A stretch of DNA of 64,000 nucleotides, from positions 1-64,000 of the IMG/VR virus record IMGVR_UViG_3300033153_002115. One strand, written 5' to 3'. The notes under the pieces are model-generated. The model made no database searches. It saw nothing but the letters and a program-made list of their open reading frames with translations, and was not told the origin of the DNA. Of the stretch, positions 4,241 through 64,000 are shown piece after piece; the stretch's first letter is position 1; each line of letters starts with the position of its first letter. The position numbers were made by a program, and so were the translations under genes. This DNA comes from a virus.

Positions 4241-4694
4241 ATACAACCCTGATACACGGACATATATTATCCCTATAAAAGAGATCTGTGAGATTGTTGA
4301 TAAGATTCCTGTAGAAAAAAGACAAGGTAATCTCGATCATGTGTTTACTATATATTCCATGGATCCGGAAAAGGTGATGAATGTTACTGATGAGTTGTAT
4401 AATACTTGGTTAGGACAAATGAGTGTAGCTAATCAATCTGCAATGTTAAGAAAGTACTCTTTGCGAAACGTAGGTGCTTATGTTAAAATGCCTAATAGGC
4501 CAATGGAATATATTCCTCAAACAACTATAGATGAAGAAGTTGAGAACGATGAAGAGTTGGAGAATTTAGTAGGTGGTATGGTAAAAGATTCGGACTTTAT
4601 AATAGAAGTTGATCATATATCTAAAGAAGAATTCAGAGAAGCAGAACATCAAGATATAATGGATGAGTGGTCCAGATTACAAAAATCAGATTAG
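4233..4694 (+). CDS. hypothetical acidic protein
   Basis: ORF track; overlap-coupled. Confidence 0.6.
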   Translation: MHRYNPDTRTYIIPIKEICEIVDKIPVEKRQGNLDHVFTIYSMDPEKVMNVTDELYNTWLGQMSVANQSAMLRKYSLRNVGAYVKMPNRPMEYIPQTTIDEEVENDEELENLVGGMVKDSDFIIEVDHISKEEFREAEHQDIMDEWSRLQKSD

Positions 4695-4838
4695 TTATGC
4701 ATAGAACAAAATTGACTTTTAAAGAAGAATGGGTATTGTCTTGGTGGATATTTTTACGTAACCCAAAGGCCGCCTTGTATAAAGAAGGGATTAACTTAGG
4801 TATGGCTAAAAGATTTGCATTTAAAAGAGCTGTGAAGT

Positions 4839-46900: not shown

Positions 46901-49900
46901 CAAATACTGAGCTACAAGAAGTAGCTGGTGGTAGATATTTTTATAGAAATACTTATATCAAATCTTCTACATTTCCTTTATTACCTCAGTTAGTTAAAAA
47001 ACTACAAATAGAGAAGTTGGCTGATGCTATGGAAAAGCTAGAGGCTGATGAGAGTAAAATAGCTAAACGTCCTATGAGTGTACGTGCCGCATATAAGACT
47101 GCGGCTAAAGTAGGTTTTCCTGAAAATGGTGCTGAGGTATTTAATTCCGATGGTACAGTTAAAGATGATTTAGACTTACGTTCAAGTGCTAGAGAACTGC
47201 AATCAAGTGGCTTACGTATACAACAAGCAGTACCATATAAAAAGACAAAAAGAAATATAAAGAAAGGCTCACAGGAAGCAAAACTTTTATTTGCTAATAT
47301 GTTAGCTAAACAATTCAAGTTTGAAGGTAAATCTATATCAGGTTTAGAATTACAAGAACTGTATACTGCTACTTATCATGAACTATACAAGTTAGGTTTT
47401 GAGCAGTTAAAAAAGGTATTACTTACAGACCCTACAGTTGAAGGGCCAAAAGCCGCGTTAGATTATAGTAAATTATCGGAACTGCTGCTTAGCGAATTAG
47501 ATGCCAGAAAAGAAGAATCCAAACCGTTACGGGATGGTCTTCAGGTAAATGAAAAAATAGGTAAGTTTGATATGCCTCTATGGCAAAGTGAGTACGCTGA
47601 TAAATATATGGCACTACTTAATTCTGTTATACAGAATAACGTATTACAACAGAAAGTGAGAGGAGATAGTTATGTGTTAGGTTCTGAAGAAGGGTTTATT
47701 GCCTGGGAAGAGGGAGGAAAAGAGAAAACTAAGAAAATAAAAGGTATTATCTATGCAGAAGGGTATGATGAAACAGTAGGTTTATTACCGCAAAGAACGG
47801 ATCCTAATACCGGAGAAGTACTTCCAGCTCAGATACTACTTCCTATGAAGTATGAAGATGACAAGGGTAATCTTATAGAGCCTTCTAAATTAGTAGATCC
47901 TGAAACAAACAGACTGGATCTAAGTAAACTACCTGCAGAACTTAGGGAGACATTTACATTTCGTATTCCTACACAACTACAGCAATCTATGGCTTATGCC
48001 GAAGTTGTAGGCTTTTTACCAACAGCAGTAGGTAATTTAGTTATAGCTCCTAAAGACTTTGTAGTTCAAATGGGTTCTGACTTTGATGTAGATAAACTAT
48101 ATGGGTACATGTTTAGCACTAAGTATGTAGATGGTAAATTAGAAAAAGTACCTTATGCTTCTTATGAAAAATATATTAAAGAGTTAATTAAATATGAGGC
48201 TTTAATAACTGAAACGAAAGATCGAAAAGAATTAAAAGAACATAAAAAACAGCTTAAAGGTTTAACTAAAGACTTTAAATCAGGATTACAAAACAGGATA
48301 CTAGATATCCATAAAACAGTAATGCTTGATCCACAAACACAAAAGCAAATACTTAAACCATTAGAAGCAGATTCACGCGGTTTTAGTAAAACAGCAGAGT
48401 TTGTCGATAACGTAAATTCTAGTAGACAGGAAGGGATAGACTCTGTTATATCTCATCGTTATAATAAAAAGAAACTAAAGGAAGGTAATGCCGGTAATGA
48501 TGCTATTGCTATATTCTCTTCTGATAGTATATTTAATGCTTTAGCTCAAGGGAAAGAACTAGTAGTAGGTGAGAAAGTACCAGGAGAACCTTGGAAAAAC
48601 ATTACTGTGGAATTCGGAAATAAGTACAGTATATCCAAAGGAGAAATAGGGTTAGATTATAGTTTAAAAAAGGGTAGTGAGAAAACTCCTGCAGATATGA
48701 TATCTGCTACACAAACACTTGCTGTGGATAACGCTGTATTAGAAAGTATGGCTAAGATTAACATGACTACAGAAACATCCGGAGTATATAGTTTACTTCA
48801 TATGTTAGGGTTTGAAGATGATATTACAGCTAATTTTATGTCTCAACCTATACTATTTGACTATGTGCAGATGCTTAGAAATAGTAGAGGTATGTTTGCT
48901 AAGTTTGATCCAAACTCTGAAGATAAAATATTATCAGCTTTAATTAATAAGTACGATACTAAAAGACAATATAAAAGTAAGGAACATGCAAAGTTAGCTG
49001 ATTTTAAAAGTCAGGATGCTGAAGTACATTTACAGGATATGATCCAAAGAAGAGAAGCTTATGGGGATAATTATGGGCTTGTACAACTTGCTATACTAGA
49101 GAAATATAGGGCATTAGAAGAAGACGCTTTAAAGTTAACTTCTCTTAAACGCTTATCTAACATAGACTCTAAAGGACTGAATAAAAATATTTATGTAACT
49201 AAAGAACAATTAACAACAGCTAATAAACTGGAAAAACACCCTGTAAAAAACGCTGACAAATTACTAGGTAAATACACAGGTACACACGGACGTCAACTAG
49301 CTGCACCTACAACATTAGCTGGATTTGATGTTATCTATGGGGTTAAATTTTCAGTGGATACTTTTGGAGAAGAGTTTATTGAAACATCAAATGACTTCGA
49401 ATTCGGTAGTATAGTAAAAACAGTAGAACGGACTTTAGGCCGTGATTTATCCGATGCAGACTTATATGAATTACGTAATAACATAGTACATTATACTCAT
49501 TCTATGTTAAAAGGTAAGGATACTGCACGATTACGTGACTTATTAATGCATAATATAGATGAAGGAAGTCTTTATGCTAACTTACTTAAACTGCAAAATA
49601 CTAAGTTCGGTAGACTTAATCCTTTAATGAAAAGTATATCTATAGATAAGCAAGAAGGAGAACCTTTAATAGTCAATTATGAACGTGTATCTGGTGATAA
49701 ATCTAATGATACAGAAGTATACATGGGATTGGTTGATATGCTTAAACATAATGTAGCTTTAGAAAATGGAGTAATACCTTCTCAAGTAGCACAACAACTG
49801 ATATATTATTCTTTATTAAAAGGAGGAAGAAAAGGAACTTCTTTTAAAAAGTTTATACCTGTGGATGTATTAAAAGAGATACTAGATCCAAACGCAGCAA

Positions 49901-52113
49901 GTGACTTTGATAAAAGTACCTTTTTAATGCAGTATTACCAACATAATATTAATATGGTAAATGAGTACCCTTATGGTTCTCTGGAAGCTGTAAATGGCGG
50001 CTTCGCATTGATGGAAGAAGAGGCACCCGCTGCGATAGTCACGCAAATTCCAGGAGAAGAAAAAGGAATGTATGAGACTGTATTATTAGTAAGGAACGAA
50101 AAACTAAGTATTTACGAACCAGTAGAAATATATACAGGAGAAACATCTAGGTATAACGCGAATATACAAGTAGAAGTACCTAACCCTAATCCGGTTTATG
50201 AAGATGTAGAACAAAACTCAGGAACTTTACTTACAAGACTTGTAGATAATAAACCTAGTACTTTAGAGCATCTATATAATTTAATAGACACTGAAAACCT
50301 ACCTACGTCTACAGCTATTTTGTTGGATAACCTTAAAAAAATACCTTCTAGTGGAGTTACTGTGAAGTATGTAGACACTCCGCCAGATGCCGGAGGTTTA
50401 CTAGAAGCAGATTATAATACAGCAACACGTACTCTTACTATTAATTTGTATGCGTTAAAACTAGAGAATGCGAAAGATAGCGAAGCTGTAGTAGCTATAT
50501 TACATGAACACATGCATGACCTTACATCTGGTGCTATACAAAATCATTTTGCTGCAGGTTCTGCCAGTAAAACTGTAGGGCAAGCTATAGATAATGTAGA
50601 TACTTTCTTGCAAGAACAATTGACGGGAGTATTTGACAGTGATCAGGCTTTAGACTTCGAGAATTTTCTTTTAGCTCAGTATACAGCATTAGATGTTGAC
50701 ACTTTAAAAAGAATAAGAGAGGCCACAACTAATGAGCACATATATAATAATATAATTCCAGCAGCTATAGCACATGTAGACGGTACAGAGGTATTAGATA
50801 AAGGGCAATTGGCAGCTATGAGTGATGCATTAGGTAATGTAACTAGAAACGGTAATTTTGATTATTATTATGCTATGTCTAGTATATATGAATTTATGGC
50901 TGTAACTCCATCTAATTTAGAAGCTATACAAGATAAATTGGACGGTAAACGGTATAAGTCTTTAATAGTACAGTTCTTCGCCGATTTATTTAAAAGTTTA
51001 GGGGTAACAGAAGACATTAAAGGGTTATTAAATGACATCTATACTGTAGCTAATATTACGCCTACCTCACTAGAACAAGAGACTGGTAATGAACGTTCTA
51101 TATTACATGGAACAAATACATATGATTACAGTATAGATGAAGATGCTTTTAAATGTTGTGAAGGAAAGCTGACTACTTTGGAGAAAGAGCCATTATTATA
51201 TAAAGAACTGACTCGTAATATGTACGAAAAGTACAGAAGTAAACCAGAAACAAGAGAGTGGTTTGACATTAGCTTGGAAGATATAATGGCGAATATAGAA
51301 ACTAGAGATAGTTTACCTGTACCTATGAGAGTTTATCCTGAACAAGGTGTATATGGTCTTGCTTTAATAGAAAACGAGCTAGCTACTAATGGTAAATTAC
51401 AACAACGTCATATAGATAGGTATATCGATGCGATAAACTTTTTAAAAGAGAGTATAGGTATAGACCAAAGCACTTCACAAAAAAAGGTGTCTAAAGAAGG
51501 TATAGGGGAAAAGGGAGATGAAAAAGTACAACCTAAAGTATCTTATTCGGATAATAGTAAGTTAAACACGTATATGGCAAATATGTCTCAATACGCTACT
51601 AGCTCTAGAGGAACTAATAACTTATCAGTTAAATTAAAAGAAACTAAGGATTTAGGTAAACTTACAGACCAGGCTACATTCAATAAACTAAAAGAAGCAG
51701 GTAAGACTTTAATTGAAAAATGTGGTGGAGTAATTCGTTCAGGAAAGAAATGGCAAATCGTAAATGGTAAGTCCACGTACAACGCTAAGAACGGATTATC
51801 TATAGCTAAAACACCTACTAGTACTAAACCCGGTAAATGGGCTGCTGTACAAGCTAAAAATGGTTATTCTCATGAATATGGTTCTGTAACCAGAGCGACC
51901 AGAAAATTAAGTAATAATAAGTGGTCTAAAGTGGTTAAATTAAAGGGGCCAAGTCATGCTCAAGGTGGGATAGATCTTACCATCAATAATGGTAAAGTAT
52001 CATATTCTAAAGGAGGTACAATATTAAAGGCTGCACATGGTATGTTTATAGCTGCGGATGGACTTACTATTCCACCTGATGAAAAACCTGCTAGATACTA
52101 CAGGTTATCGTAA
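43942..52113 (+). CDS. virion-packaged DNA-dependent RNA polymerase with zincin-like motif
   Basis: 2723 aa; FRIPTQ and QMGSDFDVDK (DFDxD catalytic motif of crAss-like vRNAP, about 48079); TDAQ; HEHMH later in the chain. Confidence 0.9.
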   Translation: MAACNTEEQLFLTQELYNKIVETHSDLQIEGLTFAEQREIVSFISNKMYKEAQVPDQKYTLADVKVYILKTISDIVDKNSSSIAGLTATTESAEEFKDTVNAYKKVNNTLGKVTDTKNLEKLIGISRVYLSNIQGITVVDEGVPFIETAEIDISKVYSNYGEVDAERTTFNDNFSLQLDSKEKIGGKLRSFLTFVKRKRFRRSGKAIDVTTFFGTEEYVPYQEVYNELHRLLEGVYPTETKLIARLKEQYEEAKATKNNSLAWLGDMITGLEAADQTTKRMFVRDMAKHKATMEYVYFEGYTNYEGDYKTRLTIANDNSSTAGNRLLRSWQTAHMKSSVVDGGGFYDIQKIVPHINKLDALKNKSTFRPTEAKIAISNALEDVGILIPETFLDAIIEGKITLYGGNREIYDTGYDITGAIVRDLKTISGEQVQVGDDIKTKADNKWISSSFLKSLATNAAKFNKNEFGNVFRVADKLVYTYTANHHLYNKVRDLKENKNLLDSLGNTSFSEYSLYRDLLIKEESPFKDWFDMTYVSLATILKKTQNGYRRSDGYTTLPDVDLEITKIAHAFRNSHKFTETFGQDGTGNSIDIKVSKGTNILPTISDKTRVVTLNGYTFHITNYDSSIQEKNDAPDTAIEDKENPFFISAAGINLYYNTVVMAEISRIAESSNQEFLDKLDLKTEGKGTSYKGDLFYLTPYLNTMAFNAAGAVVSPDTEGAKLLIDMIVDGDNIALYQEHIKAAVRKDLETKAQDRYDEWASYGLIKGDHLKHMNDVSSYESGLDGGDGSPIFAMEAAMSITFSEEMNNANAFQLILGDPAQYFKKDVKGTYGNITKRLASVVAPGDEADYSDEPTYLQVFMNDMVTPSKAIDSIMQTLDGVKYNTYLSWVDKVNTWEKENPAVEEYPEDIENLLDKINNLKSLAYTEIESTDAQEYLTWKTHLKEMLRYGELTDEEHKEIYDIIDSGEELKGDKLDKVLGPRKPVYANTELQEVAGGRYFYRNTYIKSSTFPLLPQLVKKLQIEKLADAMEKLEADESKIAKRPMSVRAAYKTAAKVGFPENGAEVFNSDGTVKDDLDLRSSARELQSSGLRIQQAVPYKKTKRNIKKGSQEAKLLFANMLAKQFKFEGKSISGLELQELYTATYHELYKLGFEQLKKVLLTDPTVEGPKAALDYSKLSELLLSELDARKEESKPLRDGLQVNEKIGKFDMPLWQSEYADKYMALLNSVIQNNVLQQKVRGDSYVLGSEEGFIAWEEGGKEKTKKIKGIIYAEGYDETVGLLPQRTDPNTGEVLPAQILLPMKYEDDKGNLIEPSKLVDPETNRLDLSKLPAELRETFTFRIPTQLQQSMAYAEVVGFLPTAVGNLVIAPKDFVVQMGSDFDVDKLYGYMFSTKYVDGKLEKVPYASYEKYIKELIKYEALITETKDRKELKEHKKQLKGLTKDFKSGLQNRILDIHKTVMLDPQTQKQILKPLEADSRGFSKTAEFVDNVNSSRQEGIDSVISHRYNKKKLKEGNAGNDAIAIFSSDSIFNALAQGKELVVGEKVPGEPWKNITVEFGNKYSISKGEIGLDYSLKKGSEKTPADMISATQTLAVDNAVLESMAKINMTTETSGVYSLLHMLGFEDDITANFMSQPILFDYVQMLRNSRGMFAKFDPNSEDKILSALINKYDTKRQYKSKEHAKLADFKSQDAEVHLQDMIQRREAYGDNYGLVQLAILEKYRALEEDALKLTSLKRLSNIDSKGLNKNIYVTKEQLTTANKLEKHPVKNADKLLGKYTGTHGRQLAAPTTLAGFDVIYGVKFSVDTFGEEFIETSNDFEFGSIVKTVERTLGRDLSDADLYELRNNIVHYTHSMLKGKDTARLRDLLMHNIDEGSLYANLLKLQNTKFGRLNPLMKSISIDKQEGEPLIVNYERVSGDKSNDTEVYMGLVDMLKHNVALENGVIPSQVAQQLIYYSLLKGGRKGTSFKKFIPVDVLKEILDPNAASDFDKSTFLMQYYQHNINMVNEYPYGSLEAVNGGFALMEEEAPAAIVTQIPGEEKGMYETVLLVRNEKLSIYEPVEIYTGETSRYNANIQVEVPNPNPVYEDVEQNSGTLLTRLVDNKPSTLEHLYNLIDTENLPTSTAILLDNLKKIPSSGVTVKYVDTPPDAGGLLEADYNTATRTLTINLYALKLENAKDSEAVVAILHEHMHDLTSGAIQNHFAAGSASKTVGQAIDNVDTFLQEQLTGVFDSDQALDFENFLLAQYTALDVDTLKRIREATTNEHIYNNIIPAAIAHVDGTEVLDKGQLAAMSDALGNVTRNGNFDYYYAMSSIYEFMAVTPSNLEAIQDKLDGKRYKSLIVQFFADLFKSLGVTEDIKGLLNDIYTVANITPTSLEQETGNERSILHGTNTYDYSIDEDAFKCCEGKLTTLEKEPLLYKELTRNMYEKYRSKPETREWFDISLEDIMANIETRDSLPVPMRVYPEQGVYGLALIENELATNGKLQQRHIDRYIDAINFLKESIGIDQSTSQKKVSKEGIGEKGDEKVQPKVSYSDNSKLNTYMANMSQYATSSRGTNNLSVKLKETKDLGKLTDQATFNKLKEAGKTLIEKCGGVIRSGKKWQIVNGKSTYNAKNGLSIAKTPTSTKPGKWAAVQAKNGYSHEYGSVTRATRKLSNNKWSKVVKLKGPSHAQGGIDLTINNGKVSYSKGGTILKAAHGMFIAADGLTIPPDEKPARYYRLS

Positions 52114-55257: not shown

Positions 55258-58200
55258 ATGCAGTGTTTAAATATTAATCTACCGAGCATAAGAAAAAACC
55301 TAGATGACCTGACTAAATTGACAGGTGATAAAGAAGTAGCTTATGCAACCTTAGCTAGTAATAATGGTTATACAATGAAACAGACCATGACTGGTAAAGT
55401 TTCTTCTCTGTATAACGAATTGGAAGCTATTTCTAATATACCAGAAGAAGCAGAGATTCTAAAAATGAATGTGCATTCTTCGGAATTCATAGAAAAATTT
55501 GGTGATTGGCGAAATTTAAAACAAGGTAGGTTGAACACAGACAACGAACCAAAGTTGTTTACCGAAACCGGTAAATATTATTACATAGGTGAAAAGAATA
55601 AACGTATTTCGATTAAAGTAAATAAACCTGCATCTTTTAAAAAAGTAGCCCCACTTACAAGTGAAGAGACAAATAATGCGTTAAAAAAGCAATACACTAA
55701 AGATACAGAAGGGCCAATAAAGAAAGGATCCTTTGTATCATTCAAAAGTAAAGACGGAGGTATTACTGATGCCATGGTGTATAAAGTAAATCCTAATGGG
55801 TCATTCAATTTATTTAACACTACAACAGTTACCAAAGATCATATCGGTATTTTACAAAACAAAACCCCTAGACAACTTACTAAAAAGGGGGACTATCATA
55901 CCATAGGTGGAGCTAAAGGTAAACCAGAAGTGTTAGTATTATACGCAAATAAAGACCGTAAAGAACCTCTAATACTTAATATAAAAGATAAGATTAGTGT
56001 TAATAAACAATCTTCTAACATACAACAAAACTATATAGACGCTGCTGTACAGTATGGTCTATCTAAGGAACCTACTATAAAACCTACTGAAACAGTAGAA
56101 ACTAAACCGTTACATACAGATAAAGATAAAGTCTTCGTACATGCCGAAAATGTACAGGAAGTTGATGAAGTTAAAGCAGGCATAGATGAAGATATATCCA
56201 ATGGTGTGAAAGTATTTATGGTGCTGCCTCCTCAATTCGCGAATCAACACGATATGGCTATATCAGCCTATCTAACTGATATGGATTGGGTATATAATGT
56301 AAATGAAGGTGTGGCTTATTTCGCTAAACCTAAAGCTAAAATACCTACAACAGAATCTCAAAAAGTTCCAGGCCCAACACAATCCTTTTCCAAAAGAACT
56401 CCAGGTACAATTACGGATTCAAAAGGAAACTTACATAAACTTGGTACGTTAGCTGCTAATATGATACAGTTTCTACAAGAGAAGAGACAAGATGCACTAC
56501 CTTATTTGAGACAAGGAAAACAACTAGTAAGTAAAATTGAAAGAGCGTTATTAAAAGCTGTACCGGATGCAACATTATTTATATATAATAAGATTCCAGA
56601 AGTGGTATTGGCTAATAGACAATTGAAAGAACGTATAGCTACAGATTCAAAAGATCCAAGGATACGTCAGGTTACAGGGTCAGATAACATAGACCTATAC
56701 AATAGTTTAATGTATGATTTATATACAGAAACTGTACATAGAGCTATGCAATTAGATCGCAAAGTTCCAGGTAAAGGAGGCTCATTCAATCTACGTAGTG
56801 ATCATATACAAGCTAAACTTAGAAACGATATTAGGAGTTTAGAGGAAAGGAAGCTTAACTTACAAAATACAGGAGCAGCGAATAAGGATATAGATGCTGT
56901 AACAACAGAAATTAACGACATCAATGCTATATTAGAACAAGATGTAGAAGAATACAACCTAAAGACTCTTAAAGATATAGCAAAAACTGACTTAGCAAAA
57001 GCCAGAAGAATACTTGCTAAAGAAAATATAAGTCCTGATGAGTTTGTACGTGCTAAAAACATACTGCAGAATTGGATAGACGTAGGGAATTTTGAGGATA
57101 CAGATAAAAATATATTTCTGGACGAGTCTCAAGCAGTAAATCCGGAAATACAAAAAGACTTTAAAGAGATAGCTAATGAAGCTGAATCAATCAAGGATAC
57201 ATCATTGAACAATAAAGGCAGGAACTTGATAACTAGTAAAATAAGTTCTACTTTAAACAAAGTATTCAACTTTAATGACATAACTAAATTAAAGAATAAA
57301 GTAAACGGTTGGTTTAAAACAGTATTTTCTATAGCTAAAGTGGATAACCCGACTGTAGCTTACATAATGAAAACTATAAACACTGCCGCTAAGAAAGCAG
57401 AAGTAAAAGCTATTACAGAAAGTAATCATTTAGCTGAGTTATATGAGACTTTGCGACAAAAAGGTTTTGATTTTGAGTTGTTTTGGCAAAAAGATAAAGA
57501 TGGTACGGTTACCGGTAATCTGGTTAGTGAATACACTTCTGAATACCTAAAAAGACTACGTAACTTTAAAAGAGGTTACGGTAGACTTTCAGACTATAAA
57601 AATGATAATGTATTTATCGATGTAAGTAGATTAGCAGGAGCTTCAACTCTAGCTATAGAAAAATACGTAGAAGAGTTAACTCCGATTATAGGCAGAGATA
57701 AAGCTATATCTGCTGTAGCAGAAGCCGACATGCTCTTTAAACGGTATATGGAAATAAAAGACCATTATTTAATGGCAGAGTTTGGTGTAGAGAATGAAGA
57801 GGAATTGGAAGCAGGTAGTGAAGAGGCGAGTAGGATGTTACAATGGAAAATACAAAATTCCCCTGCTATACGTGCTGCTGCTATAGATAAAGCGAATACA
57901 GGTACTTTTAACGAGATTCAAGGGGCTGCTGCTGACAGATTCCTGGTAACTGTACCAAAAAAGTTCGATGAAAATGGAAAACCTACTGAACTATACGACG
58001 ATACATTTACGTCTATTACTGAAGACACAGACGCCGCTGCTTTCTATAAGAGAGCTTATGAAATAACTAAAAAAGCAAAAGAACATTTCAATACTAGCGG
58101 TATGACTGAGTATGCTTTAGGTGCTATACAGAATACCATACTAGAAGAATACCAAGAACACGGTATAAAAGAATTTACAAAGAAAACTTTATGGGATAAT

Positions 58201-60006
58201 GCAGTAAACTATGCTGCAGGTAAAGATAATAAAAAAGAAATAACAGATCCAGTTACAGGTAAAACTGTAAAAGTACTGGATAAAGGAGTACAAACCTTAG
58301 AGTCTTTAATATCTAAGGAAATGAAAAACATACACGAAGTTAGGGAGTTAAATCCACAACAAATTAGAGAGTTATCTGCCGAAGATAGAGCTGAGATATA
58401 CCGAGAAGCATCGGATATTGTAATGAAGAGTCATAGTGGTGATATATTTAAAGCCCTTAACTCATTAAATCTTGCGGCTCTTTCTTATGGATATAAATCT
58501 GCTATTAAACCTGAAATAGATATGGCTCTCCACTACTTAGAGCAAATGGAAGCAGGTATATCGGATGAAGAGTTCAGTTTTGGTGATATAGATAGTAAAG
58601 ATGTAGGCAATGTTAAAGACATGGTAGACTACTTTATCGACAGAGAATACTTCGATATAGGAAACCAGGATAAGTCGATGAAACTGCCGATTTCTGTCTA
58701 TACATCGGATGAAAAGAGAAGAAGAAAGCAATTGTTAGAACAATTAGAAAGACTAGCTACAGATCAAACTCTAAAAGGTAAAACTACAAAGAAACGTCTT
58801 GAAACAGAATTAAAAGAAATCGGGCGTAATGTAACAGTGAATTCTATCCTTAAGAGTTTAATGGATTTTATGAGAATATCTACAATGGGGTGGAATATAC
58901 AGTCAGCTATTGCTAACTTTATGCAAGGTCAGATAGTAAATATAATACATGCCGCTGAAGGGAAATTGTTTACTTGGGAAACTTTAAAAGCAGCTTATTC
59001 TACAGTATTTACAGAAAAGTTCGATAATATTATAAAGAACTACGCTGTTCTTGGTGATATTATGTATGATTTTGAACGTAAGAACCCATTCGAAAAGAAA
59101 AAAGGGGTTTTCGGTAAAATAAAAAGCGCTGTAATGCCTTACGCTGGTACAAAAATAGCCGAAAAATTGAATCAAGGTAACATAACTGTTGCTATGTTAA
59201 TGCATATGCAAGTACAAGATAAAAATGGTAATGATATAAGCATTTGGGATGCTATAGATGATAAGGGGACTTTATCAAAAGAATACACATTTAATGGACA
59301 GAAAGGAGACGCAGCTATAGCAGAAGTTATTATACCTATAAGAGATCAAATAAACTTAATTCATGGTGACTATAATAACGCTAAATTACTTGGTAAAACT
59401 ATTGTAGGTAAAGCAGCATCGATGTTTCATTTATGGTTTTTTGAACCATATCATGCGCATTTTGGAGCAAGAAAATATAATGCTATTTTAGGTAGAGAAA
59501 CAAGAGGACGTGTATTATCGGCTATGGAATTAATCCCAAAATACGGATTAAGTTATAAAAAAATGCGACAAGCTAGAGCAACCGAGAAAATAACTGAAGT
59601 TGATCTTAATAATATAAAAGTACTTTTTATGGAACTTAGTGCTATAGCTGTTACAGGGTTACTATCTCTATTAGCTAAAGCTACTTTATGTAATGATGAA
59701 GAAACCAAATGTGGTGGTGTAGGGACTACTTATCTAGTTAATACTCTTAATCGTATAGCAAGAGAAGTAAAAACATTTACAGATCCTACTGCATATTATG
59801 ATCTTGTAACGAATCCTGTCGCTGTAGCTAGATACCTTAAAAGTATAGCTAGGATATTCCAGTATATGAGTGATGCGGCAGCAGGAGAGGATATGGATAA
59901 TAAAGATGGGGATAATAAAATACTTATAACTTTAAGTAAAGAATTCCCTATATTAAGAAGATTAATTATTGAACGTGATTTAATGGAAAATATTAGAAAT
60001 TATTAA
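55258..60006 (+). CDS. large virion cargo/polyvalent protein
   Basis: 1582 aa; EFIEKFGDW...NEPKL N-terminal motif; helical C-terminus with hydrophobic segments. Confidence 0.7.
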   Translation: MQCLNINLPSIRKNLDDLTKLTGDKEVAYATLASNNGYTMKQTMTGKVSSLYNELEAISNIPEEAEILKMNVHSSEFIEKFGDWRNLKQGRLNTDNEPKLFTETGKYYYIGEKNKRISIKVNKPASFKKVAPLTSEETNNALKKQYTKDTEGPIKKGSFVSFKSKDGGITDAMVYKVNPNGSFNLFNTTTVTKDHIGILQNKTPRQLTKKGDYHTIGGAKGKPEVLVLYANKDRKEPLILNIKDKISVNKQSSNIQQNYIDAAVQYGLSKEPTIKPTETVETKPLHTDKDKVFVHAENVQEVDEVKAGIDEDISNGVKVFMVLPPQFANQHDMAISAYLTDMDWVYNVNEGVAYFAKPKAKIPTTESQKVPGPTQSFSKRTPGTITDSKGNLHKLGTLAANMIQFLQEKRQDALPYLRQGKQLVSKIERALLKAVPDATLFIYNKIPEVVLANRQLKERIATDSKDPRIRQVTGSDNIDLYNSLMYDLYTETVHRAMQLDRKVPGKGGSFNLRSDHIQAKLRNDIRSLEERKLNLQNTGAANKDIDAVTTEINDINAILEQDVEEYNLKTLKDIAKTDLAKARRILAKENISPDEFVRAKNILQNWIDVGNFEDTDKNIFLDESQAVNPEIQKDFKEIANEAESIKDTSLNNKGRNLITSKISSTLNKVFNFNDITKLKNKVNGWFKTVFSIAKVDNPTVAYIMKTINTAAKKAEVKAITESNHLAELYETLRQKGFDFELFWQKDKDGTVTGNLVSEYTSEYLKRLRNFKRGYGRLSDYKNDNVFIDVSRLAGASTLAIEKYVEELTPIIGRDKAISAVAEADMLFKRYMEIKDHYLMAEFGVENEEELEAGSEEASRMLQWKIQNSPAIRAAAIDKANTGTFNEIQGAAADRFLVTVPKKFDENGKPTELYDDTFTSITEDTDAAAFYKRAYEITKKAKEHFNTSGMTEYALGAIQNTILEEYQEHGIKEFTKKTLWDNAVNYAAGKDNKKEITDPVTGKTVKVLDKGVQTLESLISKEMKNIHEVRELNPQQIRELSAEDRAEIYREASDIVMKSHSGDIFKALNSLNLAALSYGYKSAIKPEIDMALHYLEQMEAGISDEEFSFGDIDSKDVGNVKDMVDYFIDREYFDIGNQDKSMKLPISVYTSDEKRRRKQLLEQLERLATDQTLKGKTTKKRLETELKEIGRNVTVNSILKSLMDFMRISTMGWNIQSAIANFMQGQIVNIIHAAEGKLFTWETLKAAYSTVFTEKFDNIIKNYAVLGDIMYDFERKNPFEKKKGVFGKIKSAVMPYAGTKIAEKLNQGNITVAMLMHMQVQDKNGNDISIWDAIDDKGTLSKEYTFNGQKGDAAIAEVIIPIRDQINLIHGDYNNAKLLGKTIVGKAASMFHLWFFEPYHAHFGARKYNAILGRETRGRVLSAMELIPKYGLSYKKMRQARATEKITEVDLNNIKVLFMELSAIAVTGLLSLLAKATLCNDEETKCGGVGTTYLVNTLNRIAREVKTFTDPTAYYDLVTNPVAVARYLKSIARIFQYMSDAAAGEDMDNKDGDNKILITLSKEFPILRRLIIERDLMENIRNY

Positions 60007-60007
60007 G

Positions 60008-60093
60008 AAGAGAGGATGGGATTCGAACCCACGGAGCTTTTACACCCTCTGATTTAGCAAACCAGTGCAATAGACCAACTCTGCCACCTCTCT
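60008..60093 (-). tRNA. tRNA-Ser(GCT)
   Basis: Cloverleaf; anticodon arm CTGGT-TTGCTAA-ATCAG; long variable arm. Confidence 0.9.
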
Positions 60094-60098
60094 TTATG

Positions 60099-60169
60099 AG
60101 ATGCCGGTCAGGATCGAACTGACGAACGGAGCTTTGCAGGCAACTACCTTACCACTCGGTTACAGCATC
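60099..60169 (-). tRNA. tRNA-Cys(GCA)
   Basis: Loop CTGCAAA, U73; anticodon stem has two mismatches. Confidence 0.8.
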
Positions 60170-60172
60170 ATG

Positions 60173-60244
60173 CACAGGGAGTAGGATTCGAACCTACAAA
60201 CTACGCTTTTGGAGAACGCTTGCCACACCTATAACTGCCCCTGT
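60173..60244 (-). tRNA. tRNA-Trp(CCA), atypical D arm
   Basis: GCGTT-CTCCAAA-AGCGT; T arm GTAGG-TTCGAAT-CCTAC. Confidence 0.8.
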
Positions 60245-60247
60245 ATT

Positions 60248-60329
60248 GTGCCTCACGAAGAATCGAACTTCCTAGTCATTAGACACCAGATTTACAGTCT
60301 GGTCCTGATCCCACTCAGCAGACTCGGCA
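60248..60329 (-). tRNA. tRNA-Tyr(GTA), mismatched acceptor stem
   Basis: CCAGA-CTGTAAA-TCTGG; variable arm present. Confidence 0.75.
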
Positions 60330-60333
60330 TTAG

Positions 60334-60418
60334 AGGAAAGTGTGGGATTCCAACCCACAAGACTTTGACATCCTACTGGTTTTCAAGACCAGGCCCTCGT
60401 GCACCACGGACACTTTCC
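60334..60418 (-). tRNA. tRNA-Ser(TGA), atypical
   Basis: CTGGT-CTTGAAA-ACCAG; long variable arm; T loop TTGGAAT. Confidence 0.8.
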
Positions 60419-60423
60419 TTATG

Positions 60424-60496
60424 TGGAATCAGATAGACTCGAACTACCGTCTCAAGATCTTCAATCTCGTGCTATTGCCTCCTCAGCTATGATTCC
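60424..60496 (-). tRNA. tRNA-Phe(GAA)
   Basis: CGAGA-TTGAAGA-TCTTG. Confidence 0.88.
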
Positions 60497-60501
60497 ATTA
60501 G

Positions 60502-60576
60502 TGCGGAAAGAGAGACTCGAACTCTCAGAACTCTGGAGCCTAAATCCAGCGACTTTACCTATTTGCCCACTCCCGC
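60502..60576 (-). tRNA. tRNA-Leu(TAG), short variable region
   Basis: CTGGA-TTTAGGC-TCCAG. Confidence 0.85.
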
Positions 60577-60582
60577 ATTTTG

Positions 60583-60669
60583 TGCACCTGGTGAGAGTCG
60601 AACTCACAAGACCATCACTGATCACTGGGGCTTAAACCCAGCGCGTTTCTCCAGTTTCGCCACAGACGC
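60583..60669 (-). tRNA. tRNA-Leu(TAA)
   Basis: CTGGG-TTTAAGC-CCCAG; long variable arm. Confidence 0.9.
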
Positions 60670-60673
60670 ATAT

Positions 60674-60709
60674 AAACCAGAAAGACCCTACTCGTTAAAG
60701 TAAGGTCTT
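60674..60709 (-). terminator. attenuator terminator of tRNA array 2
   Basis: AAGACCTTACT-TTAACG-AGTAGGGTCTT followed by TCTGGTTT, just before tRNA-Leu(TAA). Confidence 0.8.
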
Positions 60710-60740
60710 AGTACTATATTGTATTATTTATATAGCTATC

Positions 60741-60800
60741 CTAATCCCTTACCGAAGTAAGCAGCGACCAGAAACTAAATAAATAACATGTTGTTTTCAT
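60741..60800 (-). CDS. leader peptide 2, MKTTCYLFSFWSLLTSVRD
   Basis: ATG AAA ACA ACA TGT TAT TTA TTT AGT TTC TGG TCG CTG CTT ACT TCG GTA AGG GAT TAG; codons match the 8 downstream tRNAs. Confidence 0.85.
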   Translation of the reverse strand: MKTTCYLFSFWSLLTSVRD

Positions 60801-60813
60801 AAAATGTTATATT

Positions 60814-60839
60814 AAAACCGGTTAAATTAATAACCGGCC
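60814..60839 (-). terminator. intrinsic terminator-like hairpin upstream of leader 2
   Basis: GGCCGGTTA-TTAATT-TAACCGGTT followed by TT. Confidence 0.55.
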
Positions 60840-60910
60840 TTTACAATTTAAAGTGTCAATCAGGTTTTGCACCCCTGTTTTACATGACAAACTCGTTGTT
60901 TTTGCGGTAA

Positions 60911-60942
60911 CAAATATACACCTTATATATTATACAACCAAA
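60911..60942 (-). promoter_or_regulatory. Bacteroidota sigma-A promoter (TTTG-N20-TATATTTG)
   Basis: Both -33 and -7 boxes at consensus spacing, between the two arrays. Confidence 0.7.
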
Positions 60943-60948
60943 TAAAAG

Positions 60949-61021
60949 TTACCCCGGCTGGATTCGAACCAGAATTACAAGGCTCAAAACCTTGTGTGCT
61001 TGCCGTTTACACTACAGGGCA
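60949..61021 (-). tRNA. tRNA-Gln(TTG)
   Basis: CAAGG-TTTTGAG-CCTTG. Confidence 0.88.
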
Positions 61022-61026
61022 ATATG

Positions 61027-61099
61027 AGAAGGTGAAAGGAATCGAACCTTCAACCTCCGAATTCGTAGTCCGGGGCTCATCCATTTGAGCTACACCTCC
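61027..61099 (-). tRNA. tRNA-Arg(ACG)
   Basis: CCGGA-CTACGAA-TTCGG. Confidence 0.9.
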
Positions 61100-61104
61100 A
61101 TTAG

Positions 61105-61177
61105 TGATGCCTCTGGGTTTCGAACCCAGGCTCTTCGCATTAAAAGTGCGAGGCTTTACCAACTAAGCTAAGACACC
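61105..61177 (-). tRNA. tRNA-Lys(TTT)
   Basis: TCGCA-CTTTTAA-TGCGA. Confidence 0.9.
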
Positions 61178-61294
61178 TGATAAATAGAATATCTATACTC
61201 CTTTATCGGTGCGGCCAGTTCTCCGTACATCTCTACGACCTCCAAGCCTCTTGAATTAACACTATACATAACATTTAATTTTAATTAATACTAG

Positions 61295-61369
61295 TACTGC
61301 CAACGAGGCTCGAACTCGCATCTTCCAGGATGAAAACCTGACGTCCTACTCCATTTAGACTACAGCAGC
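61295..61369 (-). tRNA. tRNA-Glu(TTC)
   Basis: TCAGG-TTTTCAT-CCTGG. Confidence 0.88.
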
Positions 61370-61380
61370 ATATAATTTAG

Positions 61381-61452
61381 AACCCCTACCGAGAGTCGAA
61401 CTCAGGACTTGGGTTTAGAAGACCCACGCTTTTCCAGTTAAGCTATAAGGGT
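61381..61452 (-). tRNA. tRNA-Arg(TCT)
   Basis: TGGGT-CTTCTAA-ACCCA. Confidence 0.9.
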
Positions 61453-61457
61453 ACCTG

Positions 61458-61531
61458 TAGGGATGGCAGGAATTGAACCGACGCTCTCCCGGATATCAGC
61501 CGGGCACTTTAACCAACTAAGCTACACCCCC
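61458..61531 (-). tRNA. tRNA-Ile(GAT)
   Basis: CCCGG-CTGATAT-CCGGG. Confidence 0.85.
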
Positions 61532-61536
61532 ATATG

Positions 61537-61612
61537 TTGACCTGGGCGGATTCGAACCGACGACTTCTTCCTTGTAAGGGAAGCACTCTGAACCAGACTG
61601 AGTTACAGATCA
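61537..61612 (-). tRNA. tRNA-Val(TAC)
   Basis: CTTCC-CTTACAA-GGAAG. Confidence 0.9.
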
Positions 61613-61617
61613 ATTTG

Positions 61618-61691
61618 CGGACTGGTAAAGATTCGAACTTTACATACTTTCTGATATTCATCAGATTTTCTTTCCCGTTAATTTACAGCCC
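61618..61691 (-). ncRNA. tRNA-like RNA without a readable anticodon (pseudo-tRNA)
   Basis: Acceptor GGGCTG/CAGTCC and T arm intact; anticodon arm TCTGA-TGAATA-TCAGA has a 6-nt loop. Confidence 0.6.
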
Positions 61692-61698
61692 AATATAG

Positions 61699-61774
61699 CG
61701 GTCCCGGAGGGTATCGAACCCTCGTTTTTCTAGCGTGACAGGCTAGATCCCCGGCCATTGGGGCTCACGAAACC
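61699..61774 (-). tRNA. tRNA-Asp(GTC)
   Basis: CTAGC-CTGTCAC-GCTAG; G73. Confidence 0.88.
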
Positions 61775-61778
61775 ATTG

Positions 61779-61852
61779 TGGGCAATGCTGGATTTGAACC
61801 AACGACCTTCTCCTTATGAGGGAGCTGCTCTACCTGACTAAGCTAAAAGCCC
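61779..61852 (-). tRNA. tRNA(CAT), probably Ile2 (lysidine, reads ATA)
   Basis: CTCC-CTCATAA-GGAG; body resembles bacterial tRNA-Ile2 (GGTCG.TGGTTCAA.TCCAGC). Confidence 0.75.
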
Positions 61853-61857
61853 AAAAG

Positions 61858-61932
61858 TTGCGGGAGTGAGAATCGAACTCACGTTAATCTTGCTTATGAG
61901 ACAAGGCTGGAACCCCTCCAGACCACCCCGCA
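61858..61932 (-). tRNA. tRNA-Met(CAT)
   Basis: CTTGT-CTCATAA-GCAAG; lacks the three G-C anticodon-stem pairs of initiators. Confidence 0.8.
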
Positions 61933-61939
61933 ATATAAG

Positions 61940-62033
61940 ATCAGGTGTCGCACCTAAAGACTTACTTAAATCCAGCTCGGAACTGCAATCTATTTATCTT
62001 AGCGATACAAGGGAATCGAACCCTTCACCTAAT
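61940..62033 (-). ncRNA. permuted tRNA-like structured RNA
   Basis: Terminal stem ATTAGGTG/CACCTGAT enclosing a 5'-located T arm AAGGG-TTCGATT-CCCTT. Confidence 0.55.
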
Positions 62034-62034
62034 G

Positions 62035-62107
62035 AGCCTCCGACAGGAATCGAACCTGTTATCCTCTGATTACAAATCAGTAGCTTCGCCAGCAAAGCTT
62101 AAGAGGC
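62035..62107 (-). tRNA. tRNA-Thr(TGT)
   Basis: CTGA-TTTGTAA-TCAG. Confidence 0.88.
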
Positions 62108-62156
62108 ATAATTGGTCGGTGTTTTTATACAGGTACCAACCAAGAGCCTGTCTTCG

Positions 62157-62230
62157 AGCGAGTAGACGGGATCAAACCGACTCTAATCCTGGTTGGAAGC
62201 CAGGTGCACCATCATTTATGCGTTACTCGC
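62157..62230 (-). tRNA. tRNA-Gly(TCC)
   Basis: CCTGG-CTTCCAA-CCAGG; U73. Confidence 0.85.
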
Positions 62231-62235
62231 TTATG

Positions 62236-62307
62236 CGGAATGAGATGGATTCGAACCAACGTACATCTGCTTAACAGGCAGGCGCTAAGCCGCTTAGCTA
62301 TCATTCC
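62236..62307 (-). tRNA. tRNA-Asn(GTT)
   Basis: CTGC-CTGTTAA-GCAG; G73. Confidence 0.88.
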
Positions 62308-62311
62308 TTAG

Positions 62312-62383
62312 TGGAGCCGAAGTGAATCGAACACTCGTAACTCTGCTTGCAAGGCAAAGCTTCTAACCAACAAGACCAACCCC
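62312..62383 (-). tRNA. tRNA-Ala(TGC)
   Basis: TTTGC-CTTGCAA-GCAGA; G3.U70 identity pair present. Confidence 0.88.
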
Positions 62384-62385
62384 AT

Positions 62386-62461
62386 TGGGTGTATGATGAG
62401 ACTCGAACTCACTTCAACTGGAACCACAATCCAGCCCCTCGGCCACTTCGGGATCATACAC
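62386..62461 (-). tRNA. tRNA-His(GTG)
   Basis: CTGGA-TTGTGGT-TCCAG; G-1:C73; encoded CCA. Confidence 0.9.
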
Positions 62462-62463
62462 AG

Positions 62464-62537
62464 TAGGGTGAGTCAGATTCGAACTGACGGACCGGTGATT
62501 CCAAATCACCGTAGTATAGCCTCTGCAATACCACCCT
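62464..62537 (-). tRNA. tRNA-Pro(TGG)
   Basis: GGTGA-TTTGGAA-TCACC. Confidence 0.88.
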
Positions 62538-62541
62538 ATAT

Positions 62542-62579
62542 AAAACAAAAAAGACCTTCCTGTTTAGTCGGAAAGTCTT
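62542..62579 (-). terminator. attenuator terminator of tRNA array 1
   Basis: AAGACTTTCC-GACTAAACA-GGAAGGTCTT followed by TTTTGTTTT, ending 4 nt before tRNA-Pro. Confidence 0.85.
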
Positions 62580-62609
62580 ACTTGTGTTATTTTATATTAT
62601 ACGATAATA

Positions 62610-62687
62610 TCACATAGCAAGAGCCCTCCCACGAATTGTATCCGCCTTCGGCTGCTCGACTGTATGTATATTATTCATTGTTCTCAT
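62610..62687 (-). CDS. leader peptide 1, MRTMNNIHTVEQPKADTIRGRALAM
   Basis: ATG AGA ACA ATG AAT AAT ATA CAT ACA GTC GAG CAG CCG AAG GCG GAT ACA ATT CGT GGG AGG GCT CTT GCT ATG TGA; codons match the 16 downstream tRNAs. Confidence 0.87.
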   Translation of the reverse strand: MRTMNNIHTVEQPKADTIRGRALAM

Positions 62688-62691
62688 GTTG

Positions 62692-62699
62692 CAAATATA
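62692..62699 (-). promoter_or_regulatory. Bacteroidota -7 box (TATATTTG) 4 nt upstream of the leader 1 ATG
   Basis: TATATTTG-CAAC-ATG. Confidence 0.7.
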
Positions 62700-62785
62700 T
62701 ATAAAAGATTCGATTTTAAAGTCCTTTAGAATGAATTATTTTAAAATTTCTTACCTATGATACTGTTAGATTGATTCTCAAAGGG

Positions 62786-64000
62786 TTAGATATGCCCACC
62801 TGTAGACCATTTAGTATATAATGCCTGACTTGATGCTAATGAGAAATTTCCTGGTAAAGTAGTCGGCTGAATACTTAACCATAACTCATCTCCAAAATCA
62901 CCATCTCTTCTTGCTATCATTTCTGACACATCTAATAACGCTTGGAAAGTAATCTTTTCATCTAACACGGCAGCTTTACTTATAACTATACTATTTGAAT
63001 TGGTTATAGGAGCACCAGGTTCTGAATAAGTAATAGGATCACCATCTTTTAACCATCCCCAACGTACAGTCCATTCATAAGTTCCTGTAGAATTTGCATG
63101 CCCACTCCACATTAATTTAATAGGACTTGAAGTATCAAGATCAAAAGGCAGAAATCCACTAACACCTAATATATCACCTGTAGCTGTAAATTTGTTATTT
63201 GTTAATCCTGCTCCTATATCTTCACTTATATATAAAGTCTGACTCTGCATACTACCTTCAAAAGGTTTACCAGAAGCTAAGTTCAAACCTAATTGTGCTT
63301 CAGGTCTAGCTGTACCAAAGAACTCTATCCAACCATCACCATTTACCTCAAGTCTGTTTGAATGCACTTTCCATTGTTCGAATACAGGAGCTGTAGTAAT
63401 AGTTGCTGTAATTCTATATCGTATCCAATAATAATCTACACCTAATACAGGTGTTATAGGATCATTCTTGGCCCACCCATCATTTTGTAGTACACTATCA
63501 TATCTAATTTGAGTAGAGCCTACAGCCTGGAAAATGTTTTTAGCTTTTGGGTAATACTTTCCACCAGAATCTGCTTCCATTACATTAAGTTCAACCCAAA
63601 CACTTCCATTCCAGTATTCTGTAACAATATTTCCTGTACCAAAAACTGCAGCTAAAGTAACTTTTGTTTTAATACCATAATGATGTAGAACATCTACAGT
63701 ATCAGCACGCATACTTGCTATATATATAGCAGAATCGGCGTCTAAATTAGGGAACGTAAAAGTAGATCCACTAGCAGATTTAGCCGCAGCAGAAACATCC
63801 ACAAAAGAAGCACCATCATAAGTATACACTACCATACCGGCAGTATAACTATCTCCTTCACCAAACACACTTTCTGCTGGTATCCCTGGACTTCCTACGT
63901 GTAACTCGCCAAGAATATTTAACCCTTCATCATCTTCACTTACATCCAGTATATAAACATAAAAACCAGCTCCAGGTATGACGTAGCTGTTATTGATCTC
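62786..64000 (-). CDS. 5'-truncated beta-rich protein (fibre/structural-like)
   Basis: The frame of ORF 62786..63868 stays open to the window end; EYWNGSVWVEL and YYWIRYRI motifs. Confidence 0.6.
   Translation of the reverse strand, partial: EINNSYVIPGAGFYVYILDVSEDDEGLNILGELHVGSPGIPAESVFGEGDSYTAGMVVYTYDGASFVDVSAAAKSASGSTFTFPNLDADSAIYIASMRADTVDVLHHYGIKTKVTLAAVFGTGNIVTEYWNGSVWVELNVMEADSGGKYYPKAKNIFQAVGSTQIRYDSVLQNDGWAKNDPITPVLGVDYYWIRYRITATITTAPVFEQWKVHSNRLEVNGDGWIEFFGTARPEAQLGLNLASGKPFEGSMQSQTLYISEDIGAGLTNNKFTATGDILGVSGFLPFDLDTSSPIKLMWSGHANSTGTYEWTVRWGWLKDGDPITYSEPGAPITNSNSIVISKAAVLDEKITFQALLDVSEMIARRDGDFGDELWLSIQPTTLPGNFSLASSQALYTKWSTGGHI

Follow-up and report, generated by a model that had tools for sequence, protein, structure and literature searches.

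A codon-matched leader ORF as a likely ribosome-mediated attenuator of a tRNA array in a marine phage

The phage genome considered here is a record of 98,468 bp (~98 kb) with terminal repeats and a G+C content of 35%; the window, by which is meant the whole stretch of DNA that was analyzed, comprises its first 64 kb. The phage is regarded as marine, with a host that belongs to the Bacteroidota and is probably flavobacterial. The tRNA genes, all encoded on the minus strand, fall between 62537 and 60007 and form two arrays. Array 1 (60948-62537) serves 14 amino acids and has the gene order Pro, His, Ala, Asn, Gly (62230-62157), Thr, two CAU tRNAs, Asp, a degenerate tRNA-like gene (61691-61617), Val, Ile, Arg-UCU, Glu, Lys, Arg-ACG and Gln. 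Array 2 (60007-60669) consists of eight genes, Leu-UAA, Leu-UAG, Phe-GAA, Ser-UGA, a Tyr-GUA-like gene (60328-60250), Trp-CCA, Cys-GCA and Ser-GCU, which serve the remaining six amino acids (Leu, Phe, Ser, Tyr, Trp and Cys). The tRNA-Gly-UCC gene was added by Rfam as a good match (41.5 bits). The array-2 Tyr gene reaches 24 bits in Rfam, was missed by ARAGORN and carries two adjacent acceptor-stem positions without standard pairs; it is non-canonical and could conceivably be a pseudogene. With 24 tRNAs covering 20 of 20 amino acids, and with CGG as the only sense codon unread under relaxed (four-way) wobble, the decoding set of the phage is near-minimal and complete.

Other features were observed in and around the arrays. 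The degenerate tRNA-like gene between Asp and Val (minus strand) has good acceptor and T arms; its anticodon stem ends in a loop of 4 nt, and ARAGORN reports the gene, with an anticodon of 2 nt, only once the threshold is relaxed. Two array-1 spacers on the same strand, 61933-62033 and 62108-62156, hold a T-arm-like piece and other structured RNA, and neither a matched mini-ORF nor a terminator was found in them. The 117-nt spacer at 61178-61293 contains a 13-codon ORF that does not match the tRNAs downstream. On the plus strand there are two very large ORFs, one of 2723 aa (43942-52113) and one of 1582 aa without a Pfam match (55258-60006); the latter converges on array 2 and ends one base short of its tRNA-Ser.

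Between the two arrays, on the same strand as the tRNA genes, lies a mini-ORF (leader 2, 60741-60800) of 19 codons followed by a TAG stop codon (60743-60741). Its codons 5-14 (60759-60788) encode Cys-Tyr-Leu-Phe-Ser-Phe-Trp-Ser-Leu-Leu, and each of these ten codons can be read by some array-2 tRNA, so that all eight array-2 anticodons are covered and both Leu isoacceptors as well as both Ser isoacceptors are sampled. An earlier note, made from the sequence alone, had claimed that ten consecutive codons (CYLFSFWSLL) match all eight tRNAs of array 2; this claim held, with two caveats, the non-canonical Tyr gene and the codon CTT, which Leu-UAG can read only via four-way wobble. Under genome trinucleotide frequencies, the point probability that ten codons fall inside the array-2 set and represent all eight classes is 3.4e-7 per position. 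Among the 829 small ATG ORFs of the genome leader 2 has the top score by far, the runner-up reaching six classes. A 10-codon window with 8/8 anticodons is likewise unique in all six frames of the whole genome, where the next best has six, and this uniqueness persists when strict wobble is imposed and a 9-codon window is used. When leader 2 is scored against array 1 instead, only three codons match.

A second matched leader was identified in the same phage. The leader-1 mini-ORF (62610-62687, minus strand) has 25 codons, and its codons 2-22 (21 codons) fall wholly within the array-1 codon set and represent 15/15 anticodon classes, at a probability of 1e-8 per position. It contains a single array-2 codon (Leu CTT), which comes after the 21-codon run and is part of a pairing segment. 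The division of the 20 amino acids between the two leaders is thus exactly the one found between the arrays. The leaders also favor G-ending codons that are rare in the phage, namely TCG (4% of Ser), CTG (5% of Leu) and GCG (7% of Ala). The nine rare G-ending codons in the two leader runs have P = 0.00025 under the synonymous usage of the phage itself; leader 2 taken by itself does not reach significance (P = 0.09). Rare codons are also used in the leu leader of enterobacteria, where they give a more sensitive gauge, and by analogy with that leader, rare, wobble-read codons would sharpen the phage leader as a gauge.

A Bacteroidota-type promoter is predicted for the leader-2 unit directly after tRNA-Gln (60911-60942, minus strand). 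It was read from the sequence as a -7 box matching TAnnTTTG at 60918-60911, with a TTTG -33-like element at 60942-60939, 20 nt upstream; the assignment relies on the generally known consensus, and there is no mapped start site. A sigma-70 promoter scan was set aside as uninformative for a Bacteroidota-type host. The same TAnnTTTG box stands 4 nt before the ATG in leader 1 (62699-62692) and in the leaders of Cellulophaga phage phi17:2, Maribacter phage Panino and the IMG/VR locus L143, which are considered below. In leader 2 an extra stretch of 108 nt separates the box from the ATG (60802-60909, minus strand). It is absent from a relative found in marine sediment, whose contig (X1) joins 60910 to 60801 with two other letters between them and so has the box-N4-ATG geometry. 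This geometry would give a leaderless mRNA in the relatives that have it, as inferred from known Bacteroidota promoter geometry. In the window phage the leader-2 ATG lies ~105 nt from the predicted start site and is not preceded by a Shine-Dalgarno sequence, and the 108-nt stretch contains an 11-pair hairpin (60841-60814) followed by four U. With a distant ATG, no Shine-Dalgarno sequence and a hairpin with U4 in between, initiation at leader 2 remains unverified, and translation of the ORF is inferred. No second copy of the 108-nt stretch was found in the genome; it might block read-through from array 1 or damp leader-2 translation, both of which are mere possibilities.

The RNA of leader 2 can adopt alternative pairings. 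A hairpin at 60682-60709 (minus strand) with 12 pairs and a 4-nt loop was called by a terminator scan; it is followed by an interrupted U-rich tail (60672-60681) that ends 3 nt before tRNA-Leu. Its 5' arm lies in segment 3 (60699-60711), which can pair either with segment 4, forming the terminator hairpin (3:4), or with segment 2, forming the antiterminator (2:3) around a 2x2 internal loop. Segment 2 (60722-60753) is, over its whole stretch, the 3' strand of a long 1:2 hairpin, and the part of it that contains the end of the ORF and the stop codon (60753-60741) is the 5' strand of the antiterminator. The RNA of the regulatory codons doubles as segment 1 (60760-60788), which supplies the 5' strand of the 1:2 hairpin. 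Since the antiterminator (60753-60741 with 60711-60699) overlaps the 5' arm of the terminator, the two structures are mutually exclusive. No other upstream stretch complements the terminator 5' arm as well as segment 2 does (p = 0.03 against shuffles), and the leader-2 region as a whole folds with a z score of -4.8 against shuffles (0/200).

In equilibrium folds of the full leader the terminator wins whatever the ribosome position. The terminator of the trp attenuator is likewise kept in equilibrium folds. Folding of the full leader with ribosome masks was therefore dropped as uninformative, and the masks were applied instead, in a test that can inform, to a nascent transcript truncated ahead of segment 4, the 3' arm of the terminator. 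For the same reason, the switch could work only kinetically, as in trp. Without a ribosome, the minimum-energy fold of the cut transcript pairs 60788-60760 with 60753-60722 (-21.6 kcal/mol) and leaves segment 3 (60711-60699) free, its probability of being paired upstream being 0.20. With the A site on codons 5-11, the pairing of 60753-60741 with 60711-60699 becomes the minimum-energy fold (P ~0.78). Moving the A site to codons 13-17 covers segment 2 and releases segment 3, whose probability of upstream pairing drops to 0.17-0.26 and stands at ~0.5 on the last two codons. When the RNA between the codons and segment 3 was shuffled, a mask contrast as large was obtained in only 3/300 shuffles.

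These results bear on the structural claims of the earlier note. Its 2:3 pairing of 60753-60741 with 60711-60699 held, being the minimum-energy fold when the ribosome stands on the matched codons. Its 3:4 terminator (60709-60682) held as a terminator-like hairpin, termination itself being inferred, and its description of the U tract as imperfect held as well, the tail being weak and interrupted. The 1:2 structure, which it had described as a small UUCG hairpin (60761-60748), held only in part: this hairpin is real and forms part of a larger 1:2 structure. Its overall claim of a classic four-segment ribosome-mediated attenuator is supported, in the absence of any RNA data, since all sequence-level features that could be tested are met. 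These are a codon-matched ORF, a terminator before the first tRNA, a mutually exclusive antiterminator, a 1:2 hairpin that sequesters segment 2, and a register in which a pause on the regulatory codons frees segment 2, which is masked once the ribosome has reached the end of the ORF.

Leader 1 has a comparable switch (62542-62632, minus strand), in which the 5' strand of the antiterminator is at ~62632-62616. Its terminator is strong, with one arm at 62579-62570, the other at 62560-62551 and a run of U at 62550-62542; the antiterminator arises when the 5' arm of this terminator base-pairs with the 3' portion of the ORF. In leader 1 this antiterminator is the default structure and also results from a pause at any of codons 1-15; a ribosome at codon 17 or later masks it.

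Leader 2 is thus likely to be a ribosome-mediated transcription attenuator that gates the eight-gene array 2; its promoter, its translation, termination at the hairpin and the direction of its response are inferred, and there are no RNA data. According to this model, transcription would start at the promoter box (60918-60911) and enter the 19-codon ORF. When the tRNAs for codons 5-14 are plentiful and charged, the ribosome would reach the stop codon and cover segment 2 (60753-60741), leaving segment 3 to pair with segment 4, and RNA polymerase would stop at ~60675, before tRNA-Leu. If any regulatory codon is slow, the ribosome would pause on segment 1, segment 2 would pair with segment 3, no terminator would form and array 2 would be transcribed. 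In the absence of translation, the 1:2 hairpin would form and lead to termination. The leader would in this way be a roster of its array, gauging decoding capacity for exactly its own tRNAs, host and phage pooled, and the outcome would be demand-driven, self-limiting tRNA expression. The physiological trigger is inferred only; possible candidates are tRNA loss (by host defense or shut-off), heavy late translation and amino-acid starvation.

The same module recurs in other phages. BLAST of the arrays led, via tRNA similarity alone, to the Cellulophaga phages phi17:2 and phi4:1 and to the Maribacter phage Panino, and the module heads every array of phi17:2 (three modules) and of Panino (three modules). 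In phi17:2 each of three sub-arrays comes after a mini-ORF and a hairpin with a U run, and the best runs of the three leaders represent 7/7, 9/10 and 6/7 anticodon classes of their own array and at most three of another array. The third array of Panino, ~40 kb from the other two and on the opposite strand, keeps its own leader. Panino leader B contains AGA codons, though an Arg-UCU gene is unannotated; at the syntenic place there is a weak tRNA with a UCU anticodon (L009 28066-28145, 25 bits). A first pattern search of IMG/VR detected the module also in L022, L068/L073, L019/L021, L034 and L031, and a second one in L117/L143. The L143 leader resembles leader 2 at its start, has a run of only Leu, Tyr and Ser codons ahead of an array with only Tyr, Leu-UAA, Ser-UGA, Ser-GCU and Leu-UAG, and shows a mask-dependent switch as in leader 2. 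L068 lacks both Glu codons and a Glu tRNA, and more generally Asn, Leu and Glu shift between arrays across phages and their codons shift along. In the L031 leader there are Ser and Cys codons, yet such tRNAs were not detected in its short array.

Counted over 12 modules, 74/77 amino acids served by an array also appear in the leader of that array (odds ratio 31, p = 8e-17), and when leader and array assignments were permuted the observed match was reached in 0/100,000 trials. Several of these modules are homologous, and such statistics overstate their independence; the homologous modules are still informative because the differences in content among homologues are themselves evidence. As negative controls, the phages Vibrio phi 3, Klebsiella Magnus and Synechococcus S-SM2 showed no matched run of more than two codons upstream of their tRNA clusters; the control is a weak one, these clusters holding only 1-2 tRNAs. 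Both the second matched leader in the window and the covariation of leader and array in other phages give independent support to the attenuator reading of leader 2.

It could be argued that the ORF encodes a small functional peptide, or that it arose by chance in the promoter/terminator spacer that separates two tRNA operons. Small ORFs are indeed common in phage tRNA regions, and in phi17:2 and Panino some are annotated as hypothetical proteins. Against this explanation, the match of leader 2 to its array is unique in the genome and a second matched leader exists; across phages the peptide sequence is not conserved while its composition follows the array in every phage, and the codon choice departs from the usage of the phage itself. 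This explanation is considered very unlikely.

The tRNA regions of the related phages showed further features. GenBank entries for hypothetical proteins in phi17:2 (L001, phi17:2_18, 2789-2908 and 4730-4831) and in Panino (L007/L009, CDS0108, CDS0063 and CDS0068) are leader ORFs or ORFs that lie over unannotated tRNAs; a Ser-UGA gene lies under CDS 078 of phi17:2 and an Arg-UCU-like gene under CDS0068 of Panino. The second tRNA array of Panino contains a permuted tmRNA (L009 27590-27798, Rfam RF04321, 62 bits). In L031 (reverse strand), a non-canonical Tyr-GUA-like gene that was missed by ARAGORN is located at ~4554-4620, directly after the leader terminator, and an odd Tyr tRNA body may possibly be a common trait of this phage group.

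The structural part of the module recurs as well. In 10/10 leaders with a recognizable terminator, a G+C-rich hairpin with a U run stands directly before the first tRNA, and in each of these ten the upstream stretch that best complements the 5' arm of the terminator falls within the 3' portion of the ORF, with individual p values from 0.007 to 0.26. The U runs are strong in leader 1 and in most relatives. A comparison of phi17:2 leader a with L068 shows compensatory changes: where segment 2 differs, segments 3 and 4 differ to match. The simple mask model gives a less distinct picture for phi17:2 c and Panino C, in both of which the ORF continues well beyond segment 2.

A different output for the same leader has to be considered. 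It is conceivable that the ORF is translated and purposely matched and that what it controls is the processing or stability of the tRNA precursor, for instance through RNase access to its 5' leader; as a variant, the hairpin itself would be a processing or pause signal. In favor of this explanation are the weak, interrupted U tract of leader 2, the fact that the terminator always wins at equilibrium, and the ORFs that run beyond segment 2 in some relatives. It is opposed by the hairpin with a U run before the first tRNA and the competing complement in the ORF, seen in all ten leaders with a recognizable terminator, by the strong U runs in leader 1 and most relatives, and by the specificity of the mask-dependent switch (3/300 shuffles). 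Control of processing is accordingly held to be unlikely, and transcription attenuation is the reading preferred here.

A further alternative concerns the trigger and not the machine. It has to be asked whether the leaders sense amino-acid starvation and not tRNA supply, the link to tRNA genes being a by-product of the control of translational stress. Pausing depends on charged tRNA, so starvation would trigger the switch too, and the mechanism cannot separate the two. Against a starvation sensor, the match extends to the level of isoacceptors and codons. In phi17:2 the two Arg isoacceptors belong to separate arrays, Arg-ACG being accompanied by CGT codons and Arg-UCU by AGA codons; the Arg codons track the isoacceptor, which points to sensing of tRNA species and not of amino acids. 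Leader 2, in turn, covers both Leu and both Ser isoacceptors. Moreover, an extra tRNA gives no relief from a missing amino acid. Starvation as the signal for which these leaders exist is thus judged unlikely, and the supply of tRNAs for the matched codons remains the favored input of the attenuator.

The leader-2 element could also be followed in metagenomic relatives, which are present, in small shares, in three marine-sediment DNA runs; no RNA run was found to contain the stretch. The X1 contig differs from the leader-2 stretch (60658-60801) by five differences and one gap in 144 nt; the flanking tRNA genes are 89-95% identical in this sediment relative, in which the leader-2 stretch is at least as conserved as they are. 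The three X1 changes that are listed (60713, 60724 and 60738) fall outside the 2:3 and 3:4 stems. The sediment contigs are partial and most of their differences are unlisted, so that no proper covariation count could be made for leader 2. A search of IMG/VR and JGI for relatives via neighboring proteins returned only one 7.9-kb contig, 57% identical and without tRNAs after the gene; protein homologues of the upstream gene reach identities of up to 63%. An exact-pattern search of IMG/VR for leader 2 gave no match.

Why and when phages use their tRNA genes is debated, the main proposals being the matching of codon usage and the escape from tRNA-targeting defenses or host shut-off. If the attenuator reading is true, a sensor for each array would show that tRNA expression is demand-driven, which would make the question directly testable. 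A bolder reading is that codon-matched leader attenuators are a general control layer of phage tRNA arrays and that they switch a tRNA set on only when the host pool for those codons collapses, possibly through host anticodon nucleases or phage-induced shut-off. We lean slightly against this joint claim at present; if it were true, the arrays would be an inducible counter-defense or insurance kit and not a constitutive supplement to codon usage. The leaders would also lend themselves as small natural reporters of the capacity to decode a chosen set of codons, and the annotation of GenBank phage leaders filed as hypothetical proteins would be corrected. Culturable systems are available in Cellulophaga baltica with phi17:2 or phi4:1 and in Maribacter with Panino.

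The Rfam leader families (Trp, His, Leu, Thr and Phe) and the T-box gave no match in 59900-62900 at E <= 1, tRNA-like matches aside, and a Phe_leader match in Panino (23.7 bits against a threshold of 55) is not significant. In the full-text literature that was searched, no account of leader-peptide control of tRNA genes was found, and such control is not mentioned in the paper on Panino. Within the limits of that search, trp-type control appears to be undescribed for tRNA genes. The nearest published case is the trn operon of Anabaena sp. PCC 7120, a long tRNA array that is silent and is induced when translation is impaired (PMC8421152), its control depending on direct repeats at the promoter and on the repressor TrcR (PMC8421152, PMC10272220). 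It is similar to the phage arrays as a stress-induced extra tRNA array and differs from them in its control by promoter repeats and a repressor; the terms leader peptide and attenuation are absent from both of these papers.

Similarly to the phage leaders, T-box riboswitches read tRNA status codon by codon, through the specifier, and decide between terminator and antiterminator before translation-related genes. They differ in that the T-box binds uncharged tRNA directly, without a ribosome, and has a conserved stem I and T-box motifs, whereas the phage leader has an ORF instead. The pheST (pheM) system of E. coli is a leader-peptide attenuator with cognate codons over a component of the translation apparatus; it differs from the phage leaders in controlling a synthetase, in responding to a single amino acid and in being part of a bacterial chromosomal operon. 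A similar architecture is seen in the multivalent enterobacterial leaders of ilvGMEDA (Ile/Leu/Val) and thr (Thr/Ile) and in the four-segment prototype, the trp leader; these share with the phage leaders an ORF with regulatory codons, alternative 1:2, 2:3 and 3:4 pairings, a stop-codon register in which the released ribosome masks segment 2, and an intrinsic terminator before the first structural gene, and the leu leader shares with them the use of rare codons. In contrast to the enterobacterial leaders, the phage element is predicted to control tRNAs and not biosynthetic enzymes, it samples as many as 15 anticodon classes, each of them only one or a few times and not in runs of one amino acid, and it is located in a phage, behind a predicted Bacteroidota-type promoter that abuts the ATG in most relatives; neither by sequence nor by Rfam does it resemble those leaders. 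If the proposed mechanism is correct, leader-peptide attenuation would reach beyond amino-acid operons to include RNA genes, and the number of amino acids involved would rise from between one and three to as many as fourteen.
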